Below, in pieces: positions 39,677 to 48,461 of a DNA stretch of 64,000 nucleotides (within the stretch, counting starts at the first letter, position 1; each line of letters begins with the position of its first letter). Made by a program: the position numbers and the translations under genes. A model generated the notes under the pieces. That model ran no database searches, was not told where the DNA came from, and worked only from the letters and a program-made list of their open reading frames with translations. Where the stretch lies: assembly GCA_037445735.1 (NCBI GenBank), contig JBBIJY010000013.1:20478-84477 (forward strand), written 5' to 3'. The DNA is from Armatimonadota bacterium (GTDB lineage Bacteria > Armatimonadota > Fimbriimonadia > Fimbriimonadales > GBS-DC).

Positions 39677-41977
39677 TTACGGCGTTTGTGTGGGAACAAC
39701 CCATTCGAAATCGCCATTCAGCTGTTCGAAAGGCACCTCGTGCTTGGGCATCAGATACCATTTTAAACGCCAGCGCGAGCGACTGCTCCGTTCATCTTTT
39801 TCACCGCCCTCCTGTGGGGCTGTGTGCTGAAGCGGTTCGATGCGGATTCGCTGGCGAGCGAGCCAGTTCGCGAAGTCGGGATGGAACACAGCAGCCGTCT
39901 TCCACGACACCTCTGCGGTCGCTTCCTGCCAGACCTGAACCACCTGCCGAAGGGCTTGCGGCGACCATCGGTCAAACAGTACATAACCACCTGCCTGCAG
40001 AGTCTGCATGAACAGCGGCAGTCGCGACACGGCAGTGTAAAGATGCCAGAAGGCAGGTAGCTCGTTGAAGTCGTTTGAACCCGTCAGGTCCAGGGGTGTC
40101 CAGACACCCAGCTTCGCCAGCCATCGAACCTGTCGGGGCGAAACCGCCTGACAGAAGGCGATGCAGGCGTCGAGAGGGAACTTTTCGGCAGCTGCTGATG
40201 CGGTACACGCCAGCGCCAGCAACTGAGCCGCAGGATAGTCATACCCCCGATCCAGGAACGCCATCCCGCAGGGGATTATCAGCACACCATTTTCCAGCCG
40301 CAGCTGCAAGAGAGCCTCCAGCGAATACGCCTTCCGATAGGCTTCTACAAGCTGGGCTAACGAAACCCAACGAGGAGATTGCTCAATCCAGATCAGATCC
40401 CGGCAGGGTAGCAGCTCCATAATCACCTCTGCCTGAACTGCTTTCGCCCACCGATAGACCCACTCAAACCAGCGTCTGTAGCTCCTGCCATCCAGCTGCA
40501 CGCCCTGTTTCGCCAGTGGGGATTGAATCGCACGCTCAGTCTCGGCTCGCAGCTGGCTGAGCAGCTCGCTGGCATCCTTGCCCAGTGAAGCCAGCAGACG
40601 AGCGAACCGCTCGCGATTGTACCGAGTCCCAAGATAATAACTGGCATCCACTCTGCGCTGATGGGCGGGATGAGCCATGACCCCGATCCCTGCAAGCCCC
40701 CAATAAGGATGCCAGTTGATCCCGTAGATCAGTGCCCATTCCTCTGGTCGAACCTGTTGCTCTTCAGCACGGTCGCTCTGCCAGAACCATGGGGCATCAT
40801 TTTCAACCATCCACGCGCGAAGGGCTGGATCCGGGATCAGATCGGGCAGCATGATGAGACGCACCGCTCGCCCCTGCTCAAAAGCCTCCTCTACAAGCGC
40901 ACGAAGCATCCCGCGGTTCGCCAAGCACTGCAGCAAAAGCTTTTGCAGATAGCTCTGCTTGTAATAGTGGTACCTCACGGACAGCGAGCGCAGCGCCATT
41001 TTGAACCGAAGCTCCTCATCGGCTGGCAGATTGTTCCGTTCAGCGTCGGACAGCGACGGCTCATAGATAGTCGTTCGATACTCATCCAGCCGACGCAAAA
41101 GCGCGGCGCTAACATCGGCTCGACGCAGGGGGAGTGCCTCCAGCATTGCCTGTGAACCTGATCCGTCATTACCATAGCTGTTACTATTTTCATATTCCCA
41201 CTTAGAAATGCGAGCATACAGGCGTCCCAGCTCCAGCAGCTGCTCTGGCGGAAGGGAACGGAGAAAAATATCCGATTGATGCTCCGGCACATAAACAGCG
41301 ACCACTAAAATCTGCATTTTTGCCTGCAGGGCAGCGTCCGAGGGCCACCACTCGCTATCCTCTCGTTTGATCGCCTCAGCAATCTTCTGTCCCCATGCCT
41401 GTATCTTTTGCCGTGTCGCCTCGCTTACATCGGAGAGCTGAAAGGGGATTGTTCGCAGAAGCTCTTCTGGGCTGAGGTCGCTCGGGAAGTTTTCGATGTT
41501 TTCCCGGGACCACTGTTTGAGGCGTCGAGCCTGCGCGGTTAACTCCTGAATCTCTTCAGGTGTCAGGGTGCTTATCAGCGTGTCCAGCAGGTCTTCAGGG
41601 CGCCCCTGCTCGATGGCTGTCTCTGCCTCCTGGATAAGGAAGTTTTTCAGGTTCTGTTGCCACCGCTTTTCACGAGCCTGCACCGTCGGGTCTCTTTCCA
41701 TCACCCAGCGATTCTCCCCGATCTTGCGAAAGCGCACATCCAGCCCCTGAGCGATGAGTTTTTGCGCTTCACTCCATGCACGCGGTTTGAGATGGAGCAG
41801 GGCAACTCGCTGGCGCAAGTCGGAAGTGCATTCGACCCTGCGTCTACCCACCGAGAAGCCCTCTGCGATTTGCGGGAACGAGTACCAGCCCAGCGGGAAA
41901 GCCACCTGAGGCTCCAGCGCCCACAGCGTGCCCGTCAGCCCGATAAAAATCAGCCACCCGATGGTTCGGCACCCCAT
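39677..41977 (-). CDS. Hypothetical secreted protein, probable distant paralogue of 10424-12307
   Basis: 766 aa; signal peptide 'MGCRTIGWLIFIGLTGTLWA'; GGTAGAAT upstream. Confidence 0.7.
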   Translation of the reverse strand: MGCRTIGWLIFIGLTGTLWALEPQVAFPLGWYSFPQIAEGFSVGRRRVECTSDLRQRVALLHLKPRAWSEAQKLIAQGLDVRFRKIGENRWVMERDPTVQAREKRWQQNLKNFLIQEAETAIEQGRPEDLLDTLISTLTPEEIQELTAQARRLKQWSRENIENFPSDLSPEELLRTIPFQLSDVSEATRQKIQAWGQKIAEAIKREDSEWWPSDAALQAKMQILVVAVYVPEHQSDIFLRSLPPEQLLELGRLYARISKWEYENSNSYGNDGSGSQAMLEALPLRRADVSAALLRRLDEYRTTIYEPSLSDAERNNLPADEELRFKMALRSLSVRYHYYKQSYLQKLLLQCLANRGMLRALVEEAFEQGRAVRLIMLPDLIPDPALRAWMVENDAPWFWQSDRAEEQQVRPEEWALIYGINWHPYWGLAGIGVMAHPAHQRRVDASYYLGTRYNRERFARLLASLGKDASELLSQLRAETERAIQSPLAKQGVQLDGRSYRRWFEWVYRWAKAVQAEVIMELLPCRDLIWIEQSPRWVSLAQLVEAYRKAYSLEALLQLRLENGVLIIPCGMAFLDRGYDYPAAQLLALACTASAAAEKFPLDACIAFCQAVSPRQVRWLAKLGVWTPLDLTGSNDFNELPAFWHLYTAVSRLPLFMQTLQAGGYVLFDRWSPQALRQVVQVWQEATAEVSWKTAAVFHPDFANWLARQRIRIEPLQHTAPQEGGEKDERSSRSRWRLKWYLMPKHEVPFEQLNGDFEWVVPTQTP

Positions 41978-42225: not shown

Positions 42226-42720
42226 ATGAAAACTGTCAAGGTGTTTGTCTGGGCACGCCATCCCTCCATCGAGACCCGCCTGCGCGAGCGCTTGCGCACG
42301 CTATCGGCGCTGAGCCTGATTGAGAAAGCTGGTCCTTTGAACAACCTGGCGCCTGACAACGATTCTGACAGCCCACAACCCCTCCAGGTCATTCTGCTAA
42401 CACGCGATCCACTTGTAGAAGCCTATTTGCGTCATCAATTGCGCACTCTGCCTGACCTGACCTGCACCTGCGTAAGCTGTCAGGAGGAGCATCCTGATGC
42501 AGTGATTATAGATAGCCAGTTGCTGACACCGAGTGAGCAGCGCGTTCTGCAAGCCTGTGCGAAGTATGACCGTCTTTCAGAGGTTGCCGCAGAGTCGTGC
42601 CTGACCGAAGCAACGGTCAAAAAGCACCTGTGCCACATTTACACCAAGTTAGGGCGGCACAGTCTGCATCGGGCGCTGCTGTGTGCGATTCGGTGGGGAT
42701 TGATAGAGGTGCCTGATTAG
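42226..42720 (+). CDS. LuxR-family HTH transcriptional regulator
   Basis: C-terminal 'LTPSEQRVL..EVAAESCLTEATVKKHLCHIYTKLG..AIRWGLI'. Confidence 0.85.
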   Translation: MKTVKVFVWARHPSIETRLRERLRTLSALSLIEKAGPLNNLAPDNDSDSPQPLQVILLTRDPLVEAYLRHQLRTLPDLTCTCVSCQEEHPDAVIIDSQLLTPSEQRVLQACAKYDRLSEVAAESCLTEATVKKHLCHIYTKLGRHSLHRALLCAIRWGLIEVPD

Positions 42721-42764
42721 CAATTTCTCCAGAAGTAGAAGGAAAAAGTTTCGCCCATAGGGGG

Positions 42765-42794
42765 TTGAAATGGGGTTCAGGGATGGAGTAAGCT
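42765..42794 (+). promoter_or_regulatory. Putative sigma-70 promoter of the Cys-rich peptide cluster
   Basis: TTGAAA-18 nt-TAAGCT, preceded by an A-rich tract. Confidence 0.45.
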
Positions 42795-42818
42795 ACAGAG
42801 ACAGAAAAGGTACGAGCA

Positions 42819-43292
42819 ATGGCGACCTTGAGCCGAACGGAGATGACCGAAGGCACACACCGCCGCGGATGGTGGGTAGAGCTGTTGCTGGGTGCAGCTC
42901 TGATGTGGCTGGCACTGATTGCCTATGCCGAGTGGCGCAGCGAAGGGCGCTACCTGTGGCTTTTTGGGGCGACTTACGAGGCGGGCAAAGTGCGTGCTGG
43001 GTCAACAATCCACCATCGTGTGTGGGTGTTCAACCCGACGCTGCGCTCGTTGCAGCTAGATACGGAGCCGAGTTGTGGTTGCACCGTGGTCGAGGGCGGT
43101 TCCCGCGCGCTGGGCAGGCTGTGGGGTTTGCCGTTGACCGTTGCGGTGGACACGACAGGCAAGCCGTTGGGTCGGCAGGTGCAGCGGGTAGATCTGATTG
43201 TGCGTGATCAGGAACGCGGTGTGAGCTGGCGGGAGCGGATAGAGGTGCGGTTTGAGGTGGTTGGCTCGGCTTCTTCGGCAAAACCACACTGA
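42819..43292 (+). CDS. DUF1573-like Ig-fold protein with N-terminal TM helix
   Basis: 'HRVWVFNPTLRSLQL..PSCGCT' matches the DUF1573 N..SCGC pattern. Confidence 0.75.
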   Translation: MATLSRTEMTEGTHRRGWWVELLLGAALMWLALIAYAEWRSEGRYLWLFGATYEAGKVRAGSTIHHRVWVFNPTLRSLQLDTEPSCGCTVVEGGSRALGRLWGLPLTVAVDTTGKPLGRQVQRVDLIVRDQERGVSWRERIEVRFEVVGSASSAKPH

Positions 43293-43308
43293 CAGGAGGG
43301 ACAGAGCG

Positions 43309-43704
43309 ATGCGACGGACAGAGCGTGGTGTGATGCTGATACGCGCACTGCTGCTGACAGGCAGCTTGGCATTTGTTATGATGCTGACAATCCAGTCGAG
43401 CTGGGCGCTTAGTTCTGGTTGTGGTTGGTGCTTTACTCAACGTGTGCGAATGTGTGATGAATCGGTATGTGGTCCATATCCTGCCTGCATGGGTTCCTGC
43501 GAGTGTGAAGAGTGGAACTTTCGGACGTGCACAGGGAGCGGAAGTGATTGTTCAGGAACTCATGTCGGTAATGTACCTGTGACAGTTTATTCTGGCGATT
43601 GTGATGCCAGCCCTTCGCGCCCTGTTTGCTACTGTAAAATCGATCCTTCCATACCCCCTTTCAGGCAGCTGCGACCCAAAGATGTCTGCACACCATGCCC
43701 ATAA
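43309..43704 (+). CDS. Secreted cysteine-rich small protein (14 Cys)
   Basis: AGGAGG RBS; signal peptide ending 'SSWA'; mature region of about 98 aa with 14 Cys. Confidence 0.82.
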   Translation: MRRTERGVMLIRALLLTGSLAFVMMLTIQSSWALSSGCGWCFTQRVRMCDESVCGPYPACMGSCECEEWNFRTCTGSGSDCSGTHVGNVPVTVYSGDCDASPSRPVCYCKIDPSIPPFRQLRPKDVCTPCP

Positions 43705-43722
43705 AATGAGGTAAAGATAATC

Positions 43723-44850
43723 ATGCGCATAATAATGATTTTATTTGTATGGTTGATACTGCTGGGAGCATGGGCAGATTCCTTGCCAGCGGAACTTGCT
43801 CATGCTCTTCAGCAGCGTGAACATTTTTACCATAATCATTATATCACCTTTATAGTGGAAACTCAACACGATATTTTTCAACCACACCGCTATCAGAGCC
43901 GATCGCAATACATTCTGGAAATATTTCGTGCCGCAAGGGCTGTCAAAGTGACTCAGCGTCCCCTGCAAGGAATGGACCATCGTACGAAACAGGGCAATAC
44001 TATCCAGTTTAATCTGGACAAGAATACTGGCAATATCACGACGACATCAAGCTGTTATCTTGGTGAAGATGTCAATGCCCTGATGGAACCAGACATGGAA
44101 TTTACTCAAAGTAACCAATCGTTGGCGCGCGCGCATATGGGTGCTGTGATAGGAATGAGCAAGCTGCAGAACCTTTATAGTAACCCGCAGGCGCCAGGTT
44201 TCATCTGTCAAGAGGTGTGTAACCAACGAGGTGTTTTCACTATAGGTTTAGATGTTTCTAAGCTTTATGGTGTTCAGTGGGAGCGGATAGAAGAGCGTGC
44301 CCACCGATGGATAATGGTTGGTAGAATCAAAGCTCGTCACTATGATCCACAAGCAGCAGAGGGAGACCCCGATATTACCCTTCGTGTGGAGCTGCGCAAG
44401 CCCGATGCGCTGGTTTTAGAATTGGAGGTTCTGAGACCTCTGAGGGCGGCTAATAAGTGGCAGCGCAGCCAGCTTCGCACAGTGCAGATTAAAAAGATCG
44501 ATGGACTAAGTATTCCTGCTGAGATTGAGTATCGCGCTGATAGCTCAAGTGGGGGTTACGTGATTCGCTCACATTACAAGCTCGTCAGTATCAAGCAACT
44601 TAGTGATGCAGTGGCTTTGGATCTACCACTGGGGACAAGAGTGGAGGATCGGCGGTTAGGGAGGTCAGTCAACTATCTTTGGCAAGGGCGTTTGCCGACG
44701 GAAGAGGAGTTGAAACGCCTGGCATTTCAGCAAGGCTATCTGTTGCCGCCCGAGTCGCCGCGCCAGCGCTATTCGCCCTGGCTGTTTGCTCCCGCAATGA
44801 TCTTTTTCGCCGCTGCAGGGTATCTTTACTGGCGACAGAGACGAAAATGA
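43723..44850 (+). CDS. Hypothetical exported protein with C-terminal TM anchor and basic tail
   Basis: Signal peptide 'MRIIMILFVWLILLGAWA'; ends 'SPWLFAPAMIFFAAAGYLYWRQRRK'; visibly AT-richer than flanking genes. Confidence 0.8.
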   Translation: MRIIMILFVWLILLGAWADSLPAELAHALQQREHFYHNHYITFIVETQHDIFQPHRYQSRSQYILEIFRAARAVKVTQRPLQGMDHRTKQGNTIQFNLDKNTGNITTTSSCYLGEDVNALMEPDMEFTQSNQSLARAHMGAVIGMSKLQNLYSNPQAPGFICQEVCNQRGVFTIGLDVSKLYGVQWERIEERAHRWIMVGRIKARHYDPQAAEGDPDITLRVELRKPDALVLELEVLRPLRAANKWQRSQLRTVQIKKIDGLSIPAEIEYRADSSSGGYVIRSHYKLVSIKQLSDAVALDLPLGTRVEDRRLGRSVNYLWQGRLPTEEELKRLAFQQGYLLPPESPRQRYSPWLFAPAMIFFAAAGYLYWRQRRK

Positions 44851-45650
44851 AACGCGCAGGGTTCTCGCTGGTGGAACTGCTGGTGGTGCTGGGCATTATC
44901 TCGCTGCTGGCTGCCCTGCTGTATCCCGTTTTTGCCGCCGTCCGGGAAAGAGGGCGCGCTACTCGCTGCATTACTCAGCTGCGCCAGCTGGCGCAAAGCA
45001 CCCAGATGTATCTTGCCGATTCGGACGATACCTATCCGCTGGCAGCCTACTTTAGCACACATAACGGACAGCCCTGCTTCTTCACGCTCTATCATGCGCT
45101 GGTGCCCTATGTGAAAGATAAGGAAATCGTGAAGTGTCCTTCAGATCCAAATCCCCTGAATGTGGAAGGAGTGATAAGCCGTCTGGCGTCGCTGTGTCCG
45201 GCGATGGGCTTTCGGCACAGCAGCTATATGGCGAACTGGTGCTTGATCGAAACAGGTGCGCTGCTGGGTGATTTTCATCCGCCCGTTTCCAGCGCACAGG
45301 TGGAGTTTCCTGCGGAAACGGTGCTGTATTACGATGGCAGTATCACGGGCTTGCCCAGCCTGCGTCCCTTTATACAGGGGCGACATAATGAGCAGGTTGT
45401 AGTGACGCTCGCCGATGGGCATAGCAAGGCGTGGAAGGCACGACAGGGATACGGACGGCACCGACGGGCAGATGGGGTAGAGGTGGCGCAATACTGCTTG
45501 ATTGAGCGATCAGCGTACTATCGAGGTGGAATCTATTGTGCGGACATGTTAATCGGGCTTGTGCGGCGGGATAGGCATGGCGAGGCGTGCTGGCACTGTC
45601 CGAACCGTTCACCAGGAGGTGTTGGGTATCTCTCAGGCAACTGCGAGTAG
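44847..45650 (+). CDS. Prepilin-type N-terminal cleavage/methylation protein (DUF1559-like, H-X9-DG motif)
   Basis: 'MKRAG/FSLVELLVVLGII..PVFAAVRERGRATRCITQLRQL', 'KCPSD', 'RHNEQVVVTLADGH'; ATGA-coupled to the upstream gene. Confidence 0.92.
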   Translation: MKRAGFSLVELLVVLGIISLLAALLYPVFAAVRERGRATRCITQLRQLAQSTQMYLADSDDTYPLAAYFSTHNGQPCFFTLYHALVPYVKDKEIVKCPSDPNPLNVEGVISRLASLCPAMGFRHSSYMANWCLIETGALLGDFHPPVSSAQVEFPAETVLYYDGSITGLPSLRPFIQGRHNEQVVVTLADGHSKAWKARQGYGRHRRADGVEVAQYCLIERSAYYRGGIYCADMLIGLVRRDRHGEACWHCPNRSPGGVGYLSGNCE

Positions 45651-47163
45651 GAGTCTAAGGGGGTCTACAGAGCTTCTCTGGATAGCGAGTGCTGTTGCGA
45701 CAGCGCTGGCGTTCGTGCCCGTGAATGCGTGGTGGCTGCTGGGAATAGCACCAGCCATCTGGCTGCAGGTTCTCCAGTGGGTGCATGGTTCCCATCGGGT
45801 ATGGGCGGCATTTGGCTGGGGGCTGATTTTTGCGGCGGTTCAAAGCAGGTGGGCGCTGCCGACTTTTGCACAGCAGGCACAGGCAGAGTGGGCGGCGGGC
45901 ATAGCGTGGGTGATTGTATTGATATGGTACGCCAGCTGGTGTGCGCTGTTTGGCTGGCTGGTGGGACGCCTGCCTCAGGCAGGGATTGGTTGGGCAATCG
46001 GCGCAGCGTCCGCGTGGGTGGGCATCGGCTGGCTGCGGAGTTTGGGTACCTGGGGCTTTCCGTGGGCGATGCTGGCTCTGCCGCTGACACGCTACCCGTT
46101 GCTGCTGCAACCTGCAGAGCTGGGCGGCATCTGGCTGGTGGAATGGCTTTTGATGCTCTGGAACGCGCTGATAGCGCAGGCAATCGGACGAGCGAGTATT
46201 CGCGCCTGGATTGCTCCCGTCGGGCTGCTTGTGCTGTGGGTAGGGGGCGGCAACTGGCTCTTGTGGCAGGCGCGCGCCACCATGCAGGGCGCATCTATCC
46301 GTGTGGCAGCCATTCAGCCGGAATATGATGCACCGCGTGTGCTGTTTTCTGCCCAACTATACGATTCGAGCATTGATCGGCTGCTTGATCAGGCGCGTCG
46401 AACAGGAGCGCGCTGGGCAATATTGCCCGAGTCAACGGAAACTTACCTCTGGTCACGCTTGCTGGATCAAGACCGCATACGGCGATGGCAGGACTGGTCT
46501 CGTGCGTATACACTCTATGTGGTTGTTGGGGTCAGTCGCCAGCAAGGGGAGCAAGGTTTCAATAGTGCGCTGGGAGTAGCGCCTGCTGGCTCGTGTGTTT
46601 TCTACGACAAAGTAAAGCTGATGCCGTTTACCGAATATTCGCCTGCTGCGCCAATCGCGGGGTGGCTGAGAGTGCTGGGCGCTATGCGACGCTCGTTGGA
46701 ATGTGGCGAGCGGGTGCGCGCCATCAGACTGGGAGCGGAGCCTCCTGTAGGCACGCTCATCTGTTATGAGAATTTGTTCGGCTGGATTGCGGCGCAATTA
46801 GTGCACGATGGGGCGCAGTGGCTGGTGGCAATGACTAACGACCGCTGGTTATTGGGAGCGGGCTTGCGGGAACAGTATGCCGACTACTGTATCGTGCGAG
46901 CCATAGAAACACGGCGGTGGGTGGTGCGCGCCTCAACGGTGGGGATCAGCGGCTTTTTCAGCCCTCTGGGCAAACGCTGGGAAGCACCGCGTGGGCGTCC
47001 GTATGTGCTGACGCATTCTATCCGCTGCTCTACGGTGCAAACCCTCTATGTAAGGTGGGGCGACTACTGGGGCTATGGCAGCTGGCTGATATATGGTGTG
47101 ATAGTAATGTGGGGTCTGGCATCGTTGCGACAGACATCGCGTGTGGCGGTGCAGAGAAGTTGA
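45577..47163 (+). CDS. lnt: Apolipoprotein N-acyltransferase homologue
   Basis: TM region with 'GFPW'; nitrilase triad 'LPES', 'YDKVKLMPFTEY', 'LICYE'; 'RAIETRR', 'TLYVRWGD'; start uncertain. Confidence 0.87.
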   Translation: MARRAGTVRTVHQEVLGISQATASRSLRGSTELLWIASAVATALAFVPVNAWWLLGIAPAIWLQVLQWVHGSHRVWAAFGWGLIFAAVQSRWALPTFAQQAQAEWAAGIAWVIVLIWYASWCALFGWLVGRLPQAGIGWAIGAASAWVGIGWLRSLGTWGFPWAMLALPLTRYPLLLQPAELGGIWLVEWLLMLWNALIAQAIGRASIRAWIAPVGLLVLWVGGGNWLLWQARATMQGASIRVAAIQPEYDAPRVLFSAQLYDSSIDRLLDQARRTGARWAILPESTETYLWSRLLDQDRIRRWQDWSRAYTLYVVVGVSRQQGEQGFNSALGVAPAGSCVFYDKVKLMPFTEYSPAAPIAGWLRVLGAMRRSLECGERVRAIRLGAEPPVGTLICYENLFGWIAAQLVHDGAQWLVAMTNDRWLLGAGLREQYADYCIVRAIETRRWVVRASTVGISGFFSPLGKRWEAPRGRPYVLTHSIRCSTVQTLYVRWGDYWGYGSWLIYGVIVMWGLASLRQTSRVAVQRS

Positions 47164-47219: not shown

Positions 47220-48461
47220 CTAAAAGTAGTCTATCGGGCGCAGGCAGGGGGCGCGGGCGGGGAAGAGGGCATCCAACGTGGTCAGCAGGTCGGAAGGGGC
47301 TTCAAGCAGTTCGCGGGCGGCGAGTTCGCTCGCGCTGAAGGTGCCCATCGTGAGCAGCGCGAGCGCACGCGGCTCAACACGCACCCGCGGCGACCGCTCC
47401 CGCGCACCGCGCTCCACGCGCCAGCCGCTCCCTGCACACGCCCGCAGCGTGTAGACACCGCTGTTCGCTTCAATCTGCGGGTCGTTTAGCGCAAGGCAGA
47501 AGGCGTCGCCGCTATCCGAGGGGCGCGCCGCGAGCAGGCTCTGCAGCAGGTTCTCGACATGCACCACGCGCCACATGAAGCCCGGCATCACCTCCCAGCG
47601 CAGGAACGGCTCGTCGGGATTGCGGTGCGCCGATGTCCAGCCGGTGAGCGGGAGTCGCTGCAGTTCGTCGGGCGTGCCGCTGAACTCCACCTGACGCACA
47701 TGCTCCTCGTTGGCGGCGAGCCAGCCAATAAGAGCGCGACATGCCCGCTCCGTGCCCCACACCAGCTCGCGAATGCGCAGTACCCAGCCTGAGTCTACGA
47801 AGTCATAAATCAGGTAGCCCTCCACCCGCGATTCGGGCGCGTACACCAGCTTGTGGCGGAAGTTCCACAGCAGGTAGTCCCAGCGCAGGTCGTCCCGATG
47901 CAGGCGCCCGGTGGTGGGTATCACCTGCTGATTGTAAAGCTGGCGCATCGCGGGGTAATCGCTTTCGGTCGCGCGGCGGACACCATCGGGCGCGAAGGGG
48001 GGCAGCAGGCGTGGCGGGATGCGCACGCGCGTCAGCATCCCGACCACCTCCCAGCCCAGCGGACGATAGAACTCGAAATCGAACGCCTGCAGCGCGGCGC
48101 CCGCAACCCCCTGCTGGTTCAGCGCGTTCAGCACAGCAGTCAGCAATCGCCGCGCATAGCCCCGCCGCCGATAGTGCGGATGCGTCACCACACCTGCAAT
48201 CCCCATGCAGGGAACCCGATTCTCACCAATCCACATCTGCAGCGGGATGGCGGTCAGTATCGACACCAGCACGCGCGTGGAACCCTCACCCACCCACAAG
48301 CCCCACCGCTGATTGTGAGGATAGTACGGGTCGTTGTAAAAGTAGGGGCGCGCGGTCGCCAAATCGAAGCCGAAGCCCTGACAGATCAGGCGCAGGAACG
48401 CCTCCTCCTCCGACGGCTCGACCAGATCGATCTGCACGGGCGGTCGCCACAGTTTGAGCAA
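47220..48461 (-). CDS. Eis-family GNAT acetyltransferase
   Basis: 'GIAGVVTHPHYRRRGYA', 'FYRPLGWE', SCP2-like C-terminus ending 'DYF'. Confidence 0.87.
   Translation of the reverse strand: MLKLWRPPVQIDLVEPSEEEAFLRLICQGFGFDLATARPYFYNDPYYPHNQRWGLWVGEGSTRVLVSILTAIPLQMWIGENRVPCMGIAGVVTHPHYRRRGYARRLLTAVLNALNQQGVAGAALQAFDFEFYRPLGWEVVGMLTRVRIPPRLLPPFAPDGVRRATESDYPAMRQLYNQQVIPTTGRLHRDDLRWDYLLWNFRHKLVYAPESRVEGYLIYDFVDSGWVLRIRELVWGTERACRALIGWLAANEEHVRQVEFSGTPDELQRLPLTGWTSAHRNPDEPFLRWEVMPGFMWRVVHVENLLQSLLAARPSDSGDAFCLALNDPQIEANSGVYTLRACAGSGWRVERGARERSPRVRVEPRALALLTMGTFSASELAARELLEAPSDLLTTLDALFPARAPCLRPIDYF

Follow-up and report, generated by a model that had tools for sequence, protein, structure and literature searches.

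A Sec-type cysteine-rich protein and its predicted LolA/LolB-fold partner vary together in an Armatimonadota gene cluster with an accessory Lnt paralog

Gene content of the cluster

We analyzed a cluster of six genes at positions 42226-47163 of a 64,000-nucleotide stretch of DNA (the window), which corresponds to positions 20478-84477 of contig C13 of a genome from the Fimbriimonadales, an order of Armatimonadota. Our main subject is a pair of adjacent genes in this cluster, one for a small cysteine-rich (Cys-rich) protein with a Sec-type signal and one for a 375-amino-acid (aa) membrane protein, its partner, which is predicted to have a LolA/LolB fold. Together we call them a dyad. The source genome (G000) comes from a subsurface metagenome and is 2.78 Mb in size and 99.2% complete. 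A search of sequencing runs with the window sequence matched four DNA runs, all from subsurface metagenomes of one study, and no RNA run. Six co-oriented open reading frames (ORFs) are present on the + strand, and a segment within them is missing from one allele of the locus, carried by genome G002.

42226..42720, + strand: LuxR/GerE-type regulator (164 aa; Pfam GerE 4.2e-7)
42819..43292, + strand: DUF1573-like protein (157 aa; N-terminal membrane anchor, extracytoplasmic domain, PSCGC)
43309..43704, + strand: Sec-type Cys-rich protein (131 aa; predicted mature part L34-P131, 98 aa, 14 Cys)
43723..44850, + strand: LolA/LolB-fold partner, a bitopic membrane protein (375 aa; fold from an AlphaFold2 (AF2) model and fold searches)
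44847..45650, + strand: prepilin-type protein (267 aa, 10 Cys; N_methyl 1.2e-7; H-x9-DG)
45559 or 45577..47163, + strand: accessory Lnt paralog (534 aa from TTG 45559 or 528 aa from ATG 45577)
42841..43666, no strand: natural deletion segment (826 bp absent in the G002 allele; most of the DUF1573 gene and most of the Cys-rich gene)

The original prediction had described six co-oriented genes of which the last five are tightly spaced or overlapping, and this arrangement is what we find. The gaps are, in order, 98, 16 and 18 nt; the partner stop codon then overlaps the prepilin start by 4 nt (ATGA), and the prepilin and Lnt ORFs overlap by 74-92 nt. Judged from the sequence, the partner/pilin and pilin/Lnt overlaps are translational coupling. 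The genes for the Cys-rich protein and the partner are also AT-richer than their flanks, as had been claimed, with a GC content of 0.520 and 0.488 against 0.57-0.62 for the DUF1573, pilin and Lnt genes and 0.616 for the window. In agreement with the same prediction, no lipobox ([LVI][ASTVI][GAS]C) occurs within the first 45 residues of any of the six proteins. Scans for promoters (5 promoter-like sites against 2.9 expected from shuffling) and terminators (2 terminator-like sites against a shuffled expectation of 4.6) gave nothing above expectation, and the defence-system and phage libraries PADLOC and PHROGs matched only the helix-turn-helix (HTH) and the pilin N-terminus.

The HTH of the regulator spans residues 99-151, and its N-terminal ~95 aa have no family assignment. 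Orthologues stand at the same place in the related genomes G013 and G011 (58-59% identity) and G002 (99%), and other clusters have a Sigma70_r4/extracytoplasmic function (ECF)-like regulator there instead of the LuxR type. For the second gene, the assignment to DUF1573 holds in part: the SCGC motif is present and the orthologue in G020 (59% identical) passes the Pfam model DUF1573 (PF07610) at 28.8 bits, but the window protein itself scores 16.9 bits, under the cut-off of 26.1, and the G008 orthologue 18.7. The CGC motif, PSCGC in the window protein, is found in every orthologue printed in full. A weak match to the NCBIfam OS_HP2 (seleno)protein model (2.1e-4), together with the listing of DUF1573 as a selenoprotein family with UGC in a table of one review (PMC9312934), makes a redox role of the CGC motif plausible.

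The prepilin had been called DUF1559-type, of which the type IV pilin N-terminus and the H-x9-DG motif (HNEQVVVTLADG, residue 180) stand, but Pfam DUF1559 (PF07596, SBP_bac_10) does not match the window protein at E<=0.01. Its N-terminus matches NCBIfam GspG (5.3e-7), IV_pilin_GFxxxE and TIGR02532 (2.9e-6) in addition to Pfam N_methyl. The pilin of another cluster of the source genome, on contig C40, matches PF07596 at 4.4e-14, and prepilin orthologues are 50-85% identical in the pilin-bearing clusters compared (tblastn). Export-related genes elsewhere in the source genome include three secretin matches and one A24 prepilin peptidase.

The Cys-rich protein and its LolA-fold partner

The Cys-rich protein starts at ATG 43309, which has GGAGG in front of it, and not at 43252. 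If cleaved after SWA33, the protein would have a mature part of 98 residues that begins with Leu34 and contains 14 Cys, in line with the originally proposed Sec-type peptide of 14 Cys in about 98 mature residues; here as elsewhere in this work, signal-peptide cleavage sites were judged by eye from the sequence. Among 5.8 billion clusters we found 10 homologues, none of them annotated, and in the family alignment 12 Cys are invariant and 2 nearly so. The AF2 model has a predicted local distance difference test (pLDDT) score of 83.6 overall and ~90 for residues 40-130, with an all-beta mature domain. Foldseek found nothing in the PDB at E<=0.001 (heading its list are VEGF/PDGF cystine-knot factors, with E 0.3-4 and a probability of at most 0.2), and among 48,161 chains compared with VIA-align the best was sclerostin at Z 4.0, the others, mostly cystine-knot cytokines, reaching at most Z 3.1. 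Because these rows share a theme and do not amount to a match, we do not call the protein a cystine knot. We also considered and rejected a lipoprotein: Cys38, the first of the invariant Cys, is preceded by G, S or K, stands 5-10 residues after the hydrophobic core and fits no lipobox. This rejection covers the subfamily of the window peptide; the variant on contig C7 of G011 does have LISC.

The partner shows no sequence match to any Pfam or NCBIfam family at E<=0.01, the LolA, LolB and LolA_like models included. Its AF2 model (pLDDT 90.0, predicted template modelling score 0.81, from a 31-sequence alignment) consists of a signal helix, an N-terminal helix and a long antiparallel sheet with plug helices (~residues 19-315), followed by a short conserved helix (327-336), a linker, a transmembrane (TM) helix (352-374) and a final RQRRK. 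With this model, Foldseek against the PDB retrieved 3bk5, an outer membrane lipoprotein-sorting protein, at E 2.3e-7, along with LolA3, LolA, LolB, RseB and LprG (2e-7 to 1e-4 for 3bk5, LolA3 and LolA). VIA-align placed LolB 9tpm first (Z 15.2 over 215 residues, root mean square deviation 4.2), and then LolA3 9tp6_B (Z 13.9), LolB 8cm1 (Z 13.4) and 3bk5 (Z 13.3). The modelled ectodomain is thus a LolA/LolB fold, an unclosed antiparallel beta-barrel with plug helices. The original prediction that the 375-aa protein is exported and has a C-terminal TM helix stands, but since that helix is combined with an N-terminal signal peptide, it is a type I membrane protein and not tail-anchored.

The conserved tail of the partner reads Y.W.GRLPTEEELK.LAYQQG.L.PPE.PR.RYS.W-LFAPA..FF.AAAYLY.R.RR. 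A PEP-CTERM reading of this tail stands as a resemblance only, with no PEP-CTERM model of Pfam or NCBIfam matching at E<=0.01. The source genome has an exosortase (C11:17379-18020). We rejected anti-sigma or RseB-type signalling, because the peptide precursor, the DUF1573-like protein and the partner each have only ~5-17 residues on the cytoplasmic side.

A profile of the partner family matched 319 cluster representatives (50% identity) at E<=0.001 among 1.84 billion, 196 of them at <=1e-10 and 51 at <=1e-30; a profile search of a word-indexed protein database added only two relatives. In a phylum sample of 301 genomes, 24 have a partner match at E<=1e-5. Matches occur in 11 of the 18 genomes of a second family (f18), with up to six copies, and the source genome itself has six.

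Using a simple rule for the neighbourhood (an upstream ORF on the same strand, of 60-210 aa, with at least 7 Cys and a hydrophobic N-terminus), we found a Cys-rich ORF just upstream of 36 of 43 distinct full-length partner-like ORFs. The 43 derive from 63 hmmsearch matches, or 49 distinct proteins, after four fragments and two proteins without upstream sequence were dropped; the script flagged 37, one of which, a LuxR ORF in G002, was removed by hand. Among control ORFs of 320-450 aa on contigs C1-C6 of the source genome, the rule flagged 8 of 289, and from this difference we conclude that the dyad is the basic unit. The Cys-rich proteins and the LolA-fold partners are two unannotated families that always travel together, and neither is named in Pfam, NCBIfam, PADLOC or PHROGs. 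Fifteen small Cys-rich proteins of other clusters, from genomes of two families, share 8 invariant Cys and one Gly and have a Cys within the last five residues, and hhalign relates these proteins of other dyads to the window family with 96% probability (E 3.6e-9). By sequence comparison, then, the Cys-rich proteins of different dyads are homologous but hypervariable.

Dyads are often repeated. At least five are present in the source genome (on C13, C40 and C48 and twice on C20), and tandem arrays of two to five dyads occur in G008, G005 and family f18. The arrays end either with the prepilin and Lnt or with a Wzy_C (O-antigen-ligase-like) protein and the prepilin. On C40 of the source genome (28-3757), a Cys-rich protein of 157 aa is followed by a frameshifted partner, Wzy_C and a DUF1559 prepilin. 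A split ECF-like sigma gene on C20 (1073-4970) precedes two tandem dyads with partners that have no C-terminal helix, C48 (5447-7019) carries one dyad, and C7 (2701-3831) has a partner-like ORF with no Cys-rich neighbour. At two further loci (L053 in G001:C64 and L079 in G018:C211) clusters are arranged head to tail, with the final Lnt of one cluster standing before the first genes of the next, which are regulator, DUF1573, Cys-rich protein and partner in G001 and Cys-rich protein and partner in G018.

Structure prediction of partner residues 19-345 with peptide residues 35-131, each with its own unpaired alignment, gave complex scores of 0.00, 0.91 and 0.90 in three runs (median 0.90), and the best of three controls scored 0.00. 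Among solved complexes, 116 of 157 attain the mark used for this score, as do 2 of 215 mismatched pairs. At least 3% of contacts are shared between the runs, in which the partner pLDDT is at least 38 (38, 82 and 78). In the two good runs, 132-157 contacts involve alternate barrel-strand residues and the plug helices, so that the peptide would occupy the concave face, which in LolA and LolB receives acyl chains. Of the 68 partner residues in contact, 31% are hydrophobic, compared with 40% for the ectodomain. The model supports binding between peptide and partner, and the LolA-type fold seems, in this prediction, to be used as a protein clamp.

Variation of the cluster and origin of its Lnt

All six genes recur in order in G013 and G011 (another genus of the family), with 48-85% identity (tblastn, fetched loci), and a third genus (G024) has five of the six (DUF1573-Cys-375-pilin-Lnt). 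Partial clusters lie at contig ends in G019 and G021, and variants are present in G001, G020, G023 and G015. The clusters of G001, G020, G023 and G011:C7 keep this frame, with 45-70% identity in the DUF1573-like protein, the last ~120 partner residues, the pilin and Lnt, but their Cys-rich protein and the first ~250 partner residues are unrecognisably different; G021 has a variant of this kind as well. The genes for peptide and partner therefore vary together, and the flank of DUF1573, partner tail, prepilin and Lnt is conserved. The G011:C7 and G015 clusters are the most divergent in pilin, Lnt and partner tail alike.

The peptide gene has also been lost. G002, of the same genus and with flanking proteins that are 98-99% identical, is without 826 bp, from codon 9 of the DUF1573 gene up to the last 12 codons of the Cys-rich gene, and an in-frame stub remains. 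Because the joint (42840 to 43667) recurs on contigs of three further runs of the same study, we regard the deletion allele as real, and alleles with and without the peptide are both found among the runs of that one study. G002 retains an intact partner, pilin and Lnt, whose dN/dS values (0.19, 0.24 and 0.34) compare with 0.04-0.17 for flanking genes. G015 carries an independent deletion in which the N-terminus of DUF1573 (44% identity, E 7e-10) is fused to the end of the peptide (the last 22 residues, of the G011:C7 type; 64% identity, E 2e-8), and here Lnt is split into two ORFs. A cluster in G013 (C149) has neither a peptide nor a DUF1573 gene, and its partner, pilin and Lnt are all interrupted. 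The joint loss of peptide and DUF1573, twice and independently, fits a substrate and its enzyme. What remains after peptide loss seems to decay with time, and the decay of the G015 Lnt and of the G013:C149 genes fits a machinery that serves the peptide. A low-depth contig (0.82) of run X4 lies in the DUF1573 gene at window positions 42907-42979 and is unlike the window sequence from 42979, a hint that the same habitat may contain yet another allele of the locus.

The cluster Lnt passes TIGR00546 (199.9 bits, cut-off 132.9) and matches LNT_N (PF20154, 2.1e-16) and CN_hydrolase (PF00795, 8.1e-13). E291, K351 and C402 of its ORF align with E267, K335 and C387 of Escherichia coli Lnt 5xhq (phmmer, E 1.6e-12), which we take to be the catalytic residues, and the CYE and PFxE motifs are kept; by this alignment the catalytic triad is intact, and the E-K-C motifs reported in the original prediction are confirmed. 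The source genome has three Lnt-like loci: the cluster copy, a split gene that scores higher than the cluster copy and has its halves at the ends of C2 (186136-187132) and C9 (3-854), and a weak CN_hydrolase protein on C14. The two halves cover complementary model positions (129-395 and 3-126), and because they sit at contig ends, C2 and C9 are probably adjacent. We presume that the split gene is the housekeeping lnt. A search of 41 genomes (the source genome and 40 relatives) found an Lnt match in all 41, above the cut-off in 38, and within the family each genome has one high-scoring copy (215-253 bits). Additional cluster-type copies, ~28-32% identical to these single-copy Lnts, occur in G000, G001, G002, G011 (two), G013 (two), G015, G019, G020, G021, G023 and G024 and as a fragment at a contig end in G018, that is, in 12 of the 25 family genomes (the source genome and 24 relatives), and all 12 also contain partner-like genes.

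We built a maximum likelihood tree of 39 Lnts with IQ-TREE (LG+G4, quick search) and rooted it on the C14-type protein. Its 10 cluster copies group in one clade with a Shimodaira-Hasegawa approximate likelihood ratio test (SH-aLRT) support of 100. This clade is sister (97) to 20 single-copy family Lnts (95), and 8 Lnts of other families of the order fall outside. The tree does not include the split copy of the source genome, nor four cluster copies: those of G020 (with a run of N), G015 (split), G013:C149 (with a stop codon) and G018 (a fragment). On this phylogeny the cluster Lnt is a lineage-specific duplicate, not the housekeeping orthologue. That it should be an ordinary housekeeping gene beside unrelated hypothetical genes is very improbable: it does pass the equivalog model TIGR00546, but a second lnt exists, single and higher-scoring in the relatives, and the cluster copies form a separate clade, occur only in genomes with partner-like genes and keep their gene order across at least three genera. 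Two of the checks proposed with the original prediction, recurrence of the gene order and a separate housekeeping lnt, thus came out in its favour, and a sole or housekeeping cluster lnt fails as a refutation. Its proposal of the 375-aa protein as a receptor or immunity partner gains support from the complex prediction (0.90 against 0.00) and from the joint variability. The LolA/LolB fold of the partner, the phylum-wide multi-copy dyad family and the replacement of Lnt by Wzy_C go beyond it.

The third Lnt-like protein of the source genome (471 aa; within C14:46885-50077) is divergent, with CN_hydrolase at 7.6e-14 and TIGR00546 at only 44 bits. Its gene lies directly upstream of one for a PEP-CTERM protein (281 aa; PF07589, 3e-6) and beside another prepilin gene. 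Weak Lnt-like ORFs of 388-494 aa that are akin to it are present in many relatives.

Proposed function, parallels and neighbouring genes

We tentatively favour a reading of the operon as a module dedicated to the maturation and export of a polymorphic, secreted cystine-scaffold protein, with the LolA-like partner as its cognate escort or neutraliser. The small protein, with its Sec-type signal and conserved cystine framework, would be the cargo. The membrane-anchored DUF1573-like protein would help, through its CGC, to form or shuffle the seven possible disulfides. The partner, anchored in the inner membrane, would hold the peptide in its concave face through a very large and mostly polar predicted interface, and could act there as both escort and neutraliser, by analogy with the membrane-anchored chaperones that are encoded beside type II secretion substrates in the systems treated by one source (PMC4713064). 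The translationally coupled pseudopilin may link the complex to a type IV filament or secretin machine and so to the surface or the outside. As for the Lnt paralog, AatD, an Lnt homologue, is described as acylating the N-terminal Gly of CexE, which is processed by signal peptidase I and has no lipobox (PMC7943197). By this analogy the paralog might acylate a periplasmic amine of the cargo, likely the new N-terminus left by signal peptidase I, a possibility that we regard with some doubt. The full combination, in which dyads co-diversify across the phylum, a duplicated Lnt was recruited to N-acylate a lipobox-free cargo and the pseudopilin delivers it to the surface, is rather unlikely.

Several findings weigh against this export module. 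An invariant Gly is absent from the predicted mature N-terminus: the window protein begins with Leu, the homologues begin with varied residues, and in most of the 12 family members the first few residues are G/S-rich. The clusters of G008, G005, G000:C40 and family f18 have no Lnt and a Wzy_C enzyme instead, and the G001:C11 cluster has neither behind its pilin, so acylation cannot be essential to the dyad; one Lnt cluster, in G019 (C36), is without a LolA-like partner. Of the three complex runs, one had a poorly folded partner and a score of 0.00, and the complex alignments were unpaired. Because the predicted contact face is polar, the LolA fold gives no independent support for a lipid moiety. 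Finally, as judged from the gene sequences, the intact partner, pilin and Lnt that G002 keeps without the peptide fit an immunity role at least as well.

That role belongs to the main rival, in which the dyads are polymorphic toxin-immunity pairs: the Cys-rich protein would be a secreted bacteriocin-like toxin matured by DUF1573, the LolA-fold protein its immunity protein, which sequesters it in the periplasm, and the pilin with Lnt or Wzy_C would serve only for export or decoration. Taken by itself this is on the unlikely side, and it is nearly as likely as the export module. It would account for the hypervariable loops on a conserved cystine scaffold (8 invariant Cys in 15 dyads) with a co-varying partner, for several divergent dyads per genome and their tandem arrays of two to five, for the low GC of precisely the peptide and partner genes, and for a very large predicted 1:1 interface. 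Two independent deletions have removed the peptide and kept the partner, the partner of G002 is intact at a dN/dS of 0.19, and both alleles occur in runs of one study. On the other hand, neither protein resembles a known toxin or immunity family in Pfam, NCBIfam, PADLOC, PHROGs or the fold searches, the partner is three times the size of the peptide, and its conserved tail, coupled to pilin and Lnt, would be needless for immunity. The decay of peptide-less clusters (G015, G013:C149) also makes it less likely that orphan immunity is under long-term selection. Escort and inhibitor could be one and the same membrane-bound partner, and to this extent the two readings overlap. Another explanation, which we consider quite unlikely, is that the membrane enzyme (Lnt here, Wzy_C elsewhere) modifies the pilin itself and that the dyads are pilus cargo, for example tip adhesins with their chaperones. 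Wzy_C-type pilin glycosylation enzymes (PilO/TfpO/PglL) are encoded beside pilin genes, and these Wzy_C-family O-oligosaccharyltransferases offer a parallel. Arrays in two families end with Wzy_C and prepilin or with prepilin and Lnt, the pilin and Lnt ORFs overlap, and pilin, Lnt and partner tail diverge in step (G011:C7, G015), all as this explanation would have it. However, the alpha-amine of a cleaved pilin lies at the cytoplasmic face and the catalytic domain of Lnt is periplasmic, the window pilin has no lysine near the membrane interface in its sequence, and no direct link of the dyads to a pilus was found.

Our literature search found no paper describing this system. The closest known one is Aat/Cex (AatD/CexD, CexE/Aap), although every component differs except for the Lnt homologue and the small lipobox-free substrate. 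As described in the relevant parts of two papers (PMC7943197; PMC13622617), it too ties a second Lnt-family N-acyltransferase to one operon, has a small Sec and signal peptidase I substrate with a G/S-rich start, no lipobox and no N-terminal Cys, and delivers its product to the cell surface. Processing of the window protein is predicted from its sequence, and cargo acylation, shown for Aat/Cex, would here follow by analogy. Unlike Aat/Cex, neither the six genes nor their neighbours encode a LolCDE-like ABC transporter, TolC or an adaptor, in place of which the cluster has a membrane protein of the LolA/LolB fold together with a prepilin and a DUF1573-like protein. A Cys-rich, hypervariable cargo without an invariant N-terminal Gly is a further difference, and the Lnt paralog arose inside one Armatimonadota family, independently of AatD.

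Other systems share single features. In the type II chaperone pairs LipA-LipB and CpaA-CpaB, as presented in the passages concerned (PMC4713064), a secreted protein is encoded beside a specific membrane-anchored periplasmic partner that is needed for export, and the prepilin peptidase is common with type IV pili; here, a complex is predicted for the cognate pair, the operon has a pseudopilin and the genome encodes secretins. LipB/CpaB-type chaperones have an N-terminal helix anchor, and the same passages report no LolA fold for them; our partner is anchored at its C-terminus and has a cleaved signal peptide, the cargo of 98 residues is a cystine-scaffold protein and not an enzyme, and the pairs are multi-copy and hypervariable. 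LolA/LolB and RseB/LprG have the fold of the partner (Z 8-15), with Lnt in the gene context, but the partner has no sequence-family match, is C-terminally anchored, multi-copy and hypervariable, and is predicted to hold a protein through a polar interface in its concave face and not acyl chains. The cluster Lnt resembles canonical Lnt in the TIGR00546 pass, LNT_N and CN_hydrolase domains, E-K-C triad, CYE and PFxE, and differs in being operon-linked, in a separate clade and with no lipobox protein among the six genes. Polymorphic toxin-immunity loci likewise have cognate pairs side by side and in arrays, are hypervariable and of atypical GC, and can lose the first gene and keep the second; unlike them, the dyads have no recognisable toxin or immunity domain, are Sec-dependent and have a partner tail coupled to pilin and Lnt.

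Lnt was long thought to be single-purpose until Aat/Cex showed a paralog that lipidates a lipobox-free protein. If the acylation proposed here is true, the cluster holds a second, independently evolved, operon-linked Lnt paralog in a distant phylum, and non-canonical lipidation would be a general strategy. It would then be the second non-canonical route known for the N-acylation of proteins and the first one outside Proteobacteria, and also the first in which a type IV filament machine takes the place of an ABC/TolC pump. Apart from Lnt, the models predict a lipoprotein-carrier fold turned into a protein clamp, and hypervariability, arrays and presence/absence alleles point to an arms-race function, such as antagonism or surface variation. 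With six genes the system is compact, in a phylum with almost no experimental biology.

Both sides of the cluster have neighbours of their own. Convergent with Lnt, window positions 47220-48461 (- strand) encode an Eis-like GNAT+SCP2 acetyltransferase. A GNAT of the same architecture (26% identical) lies directly upstream of, and co-oriented with, dyad arrays in family f18 (L073:2393-3586, L072:13317-14504). No GNAT was found in the ~13-kb loci around the G013 and G011 clusters (tblastn, E<=1e-3), so the link to the dyads may be coincidental. For both reasons we rejected the acetyltransferase as a part of the cluster and treat it as a neighbour. On the other side, and divergent from the cluster, positions 39677-41977 (- strand) hold a 766-aa ORF with a signal-like N-terminus that matches no family of Pfam or NCBIfam. 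Its place in the sister genome G002 is taken by a 305-aa ORF with only the first 21 residues in common, which indicates that this side of the locus is variable too.

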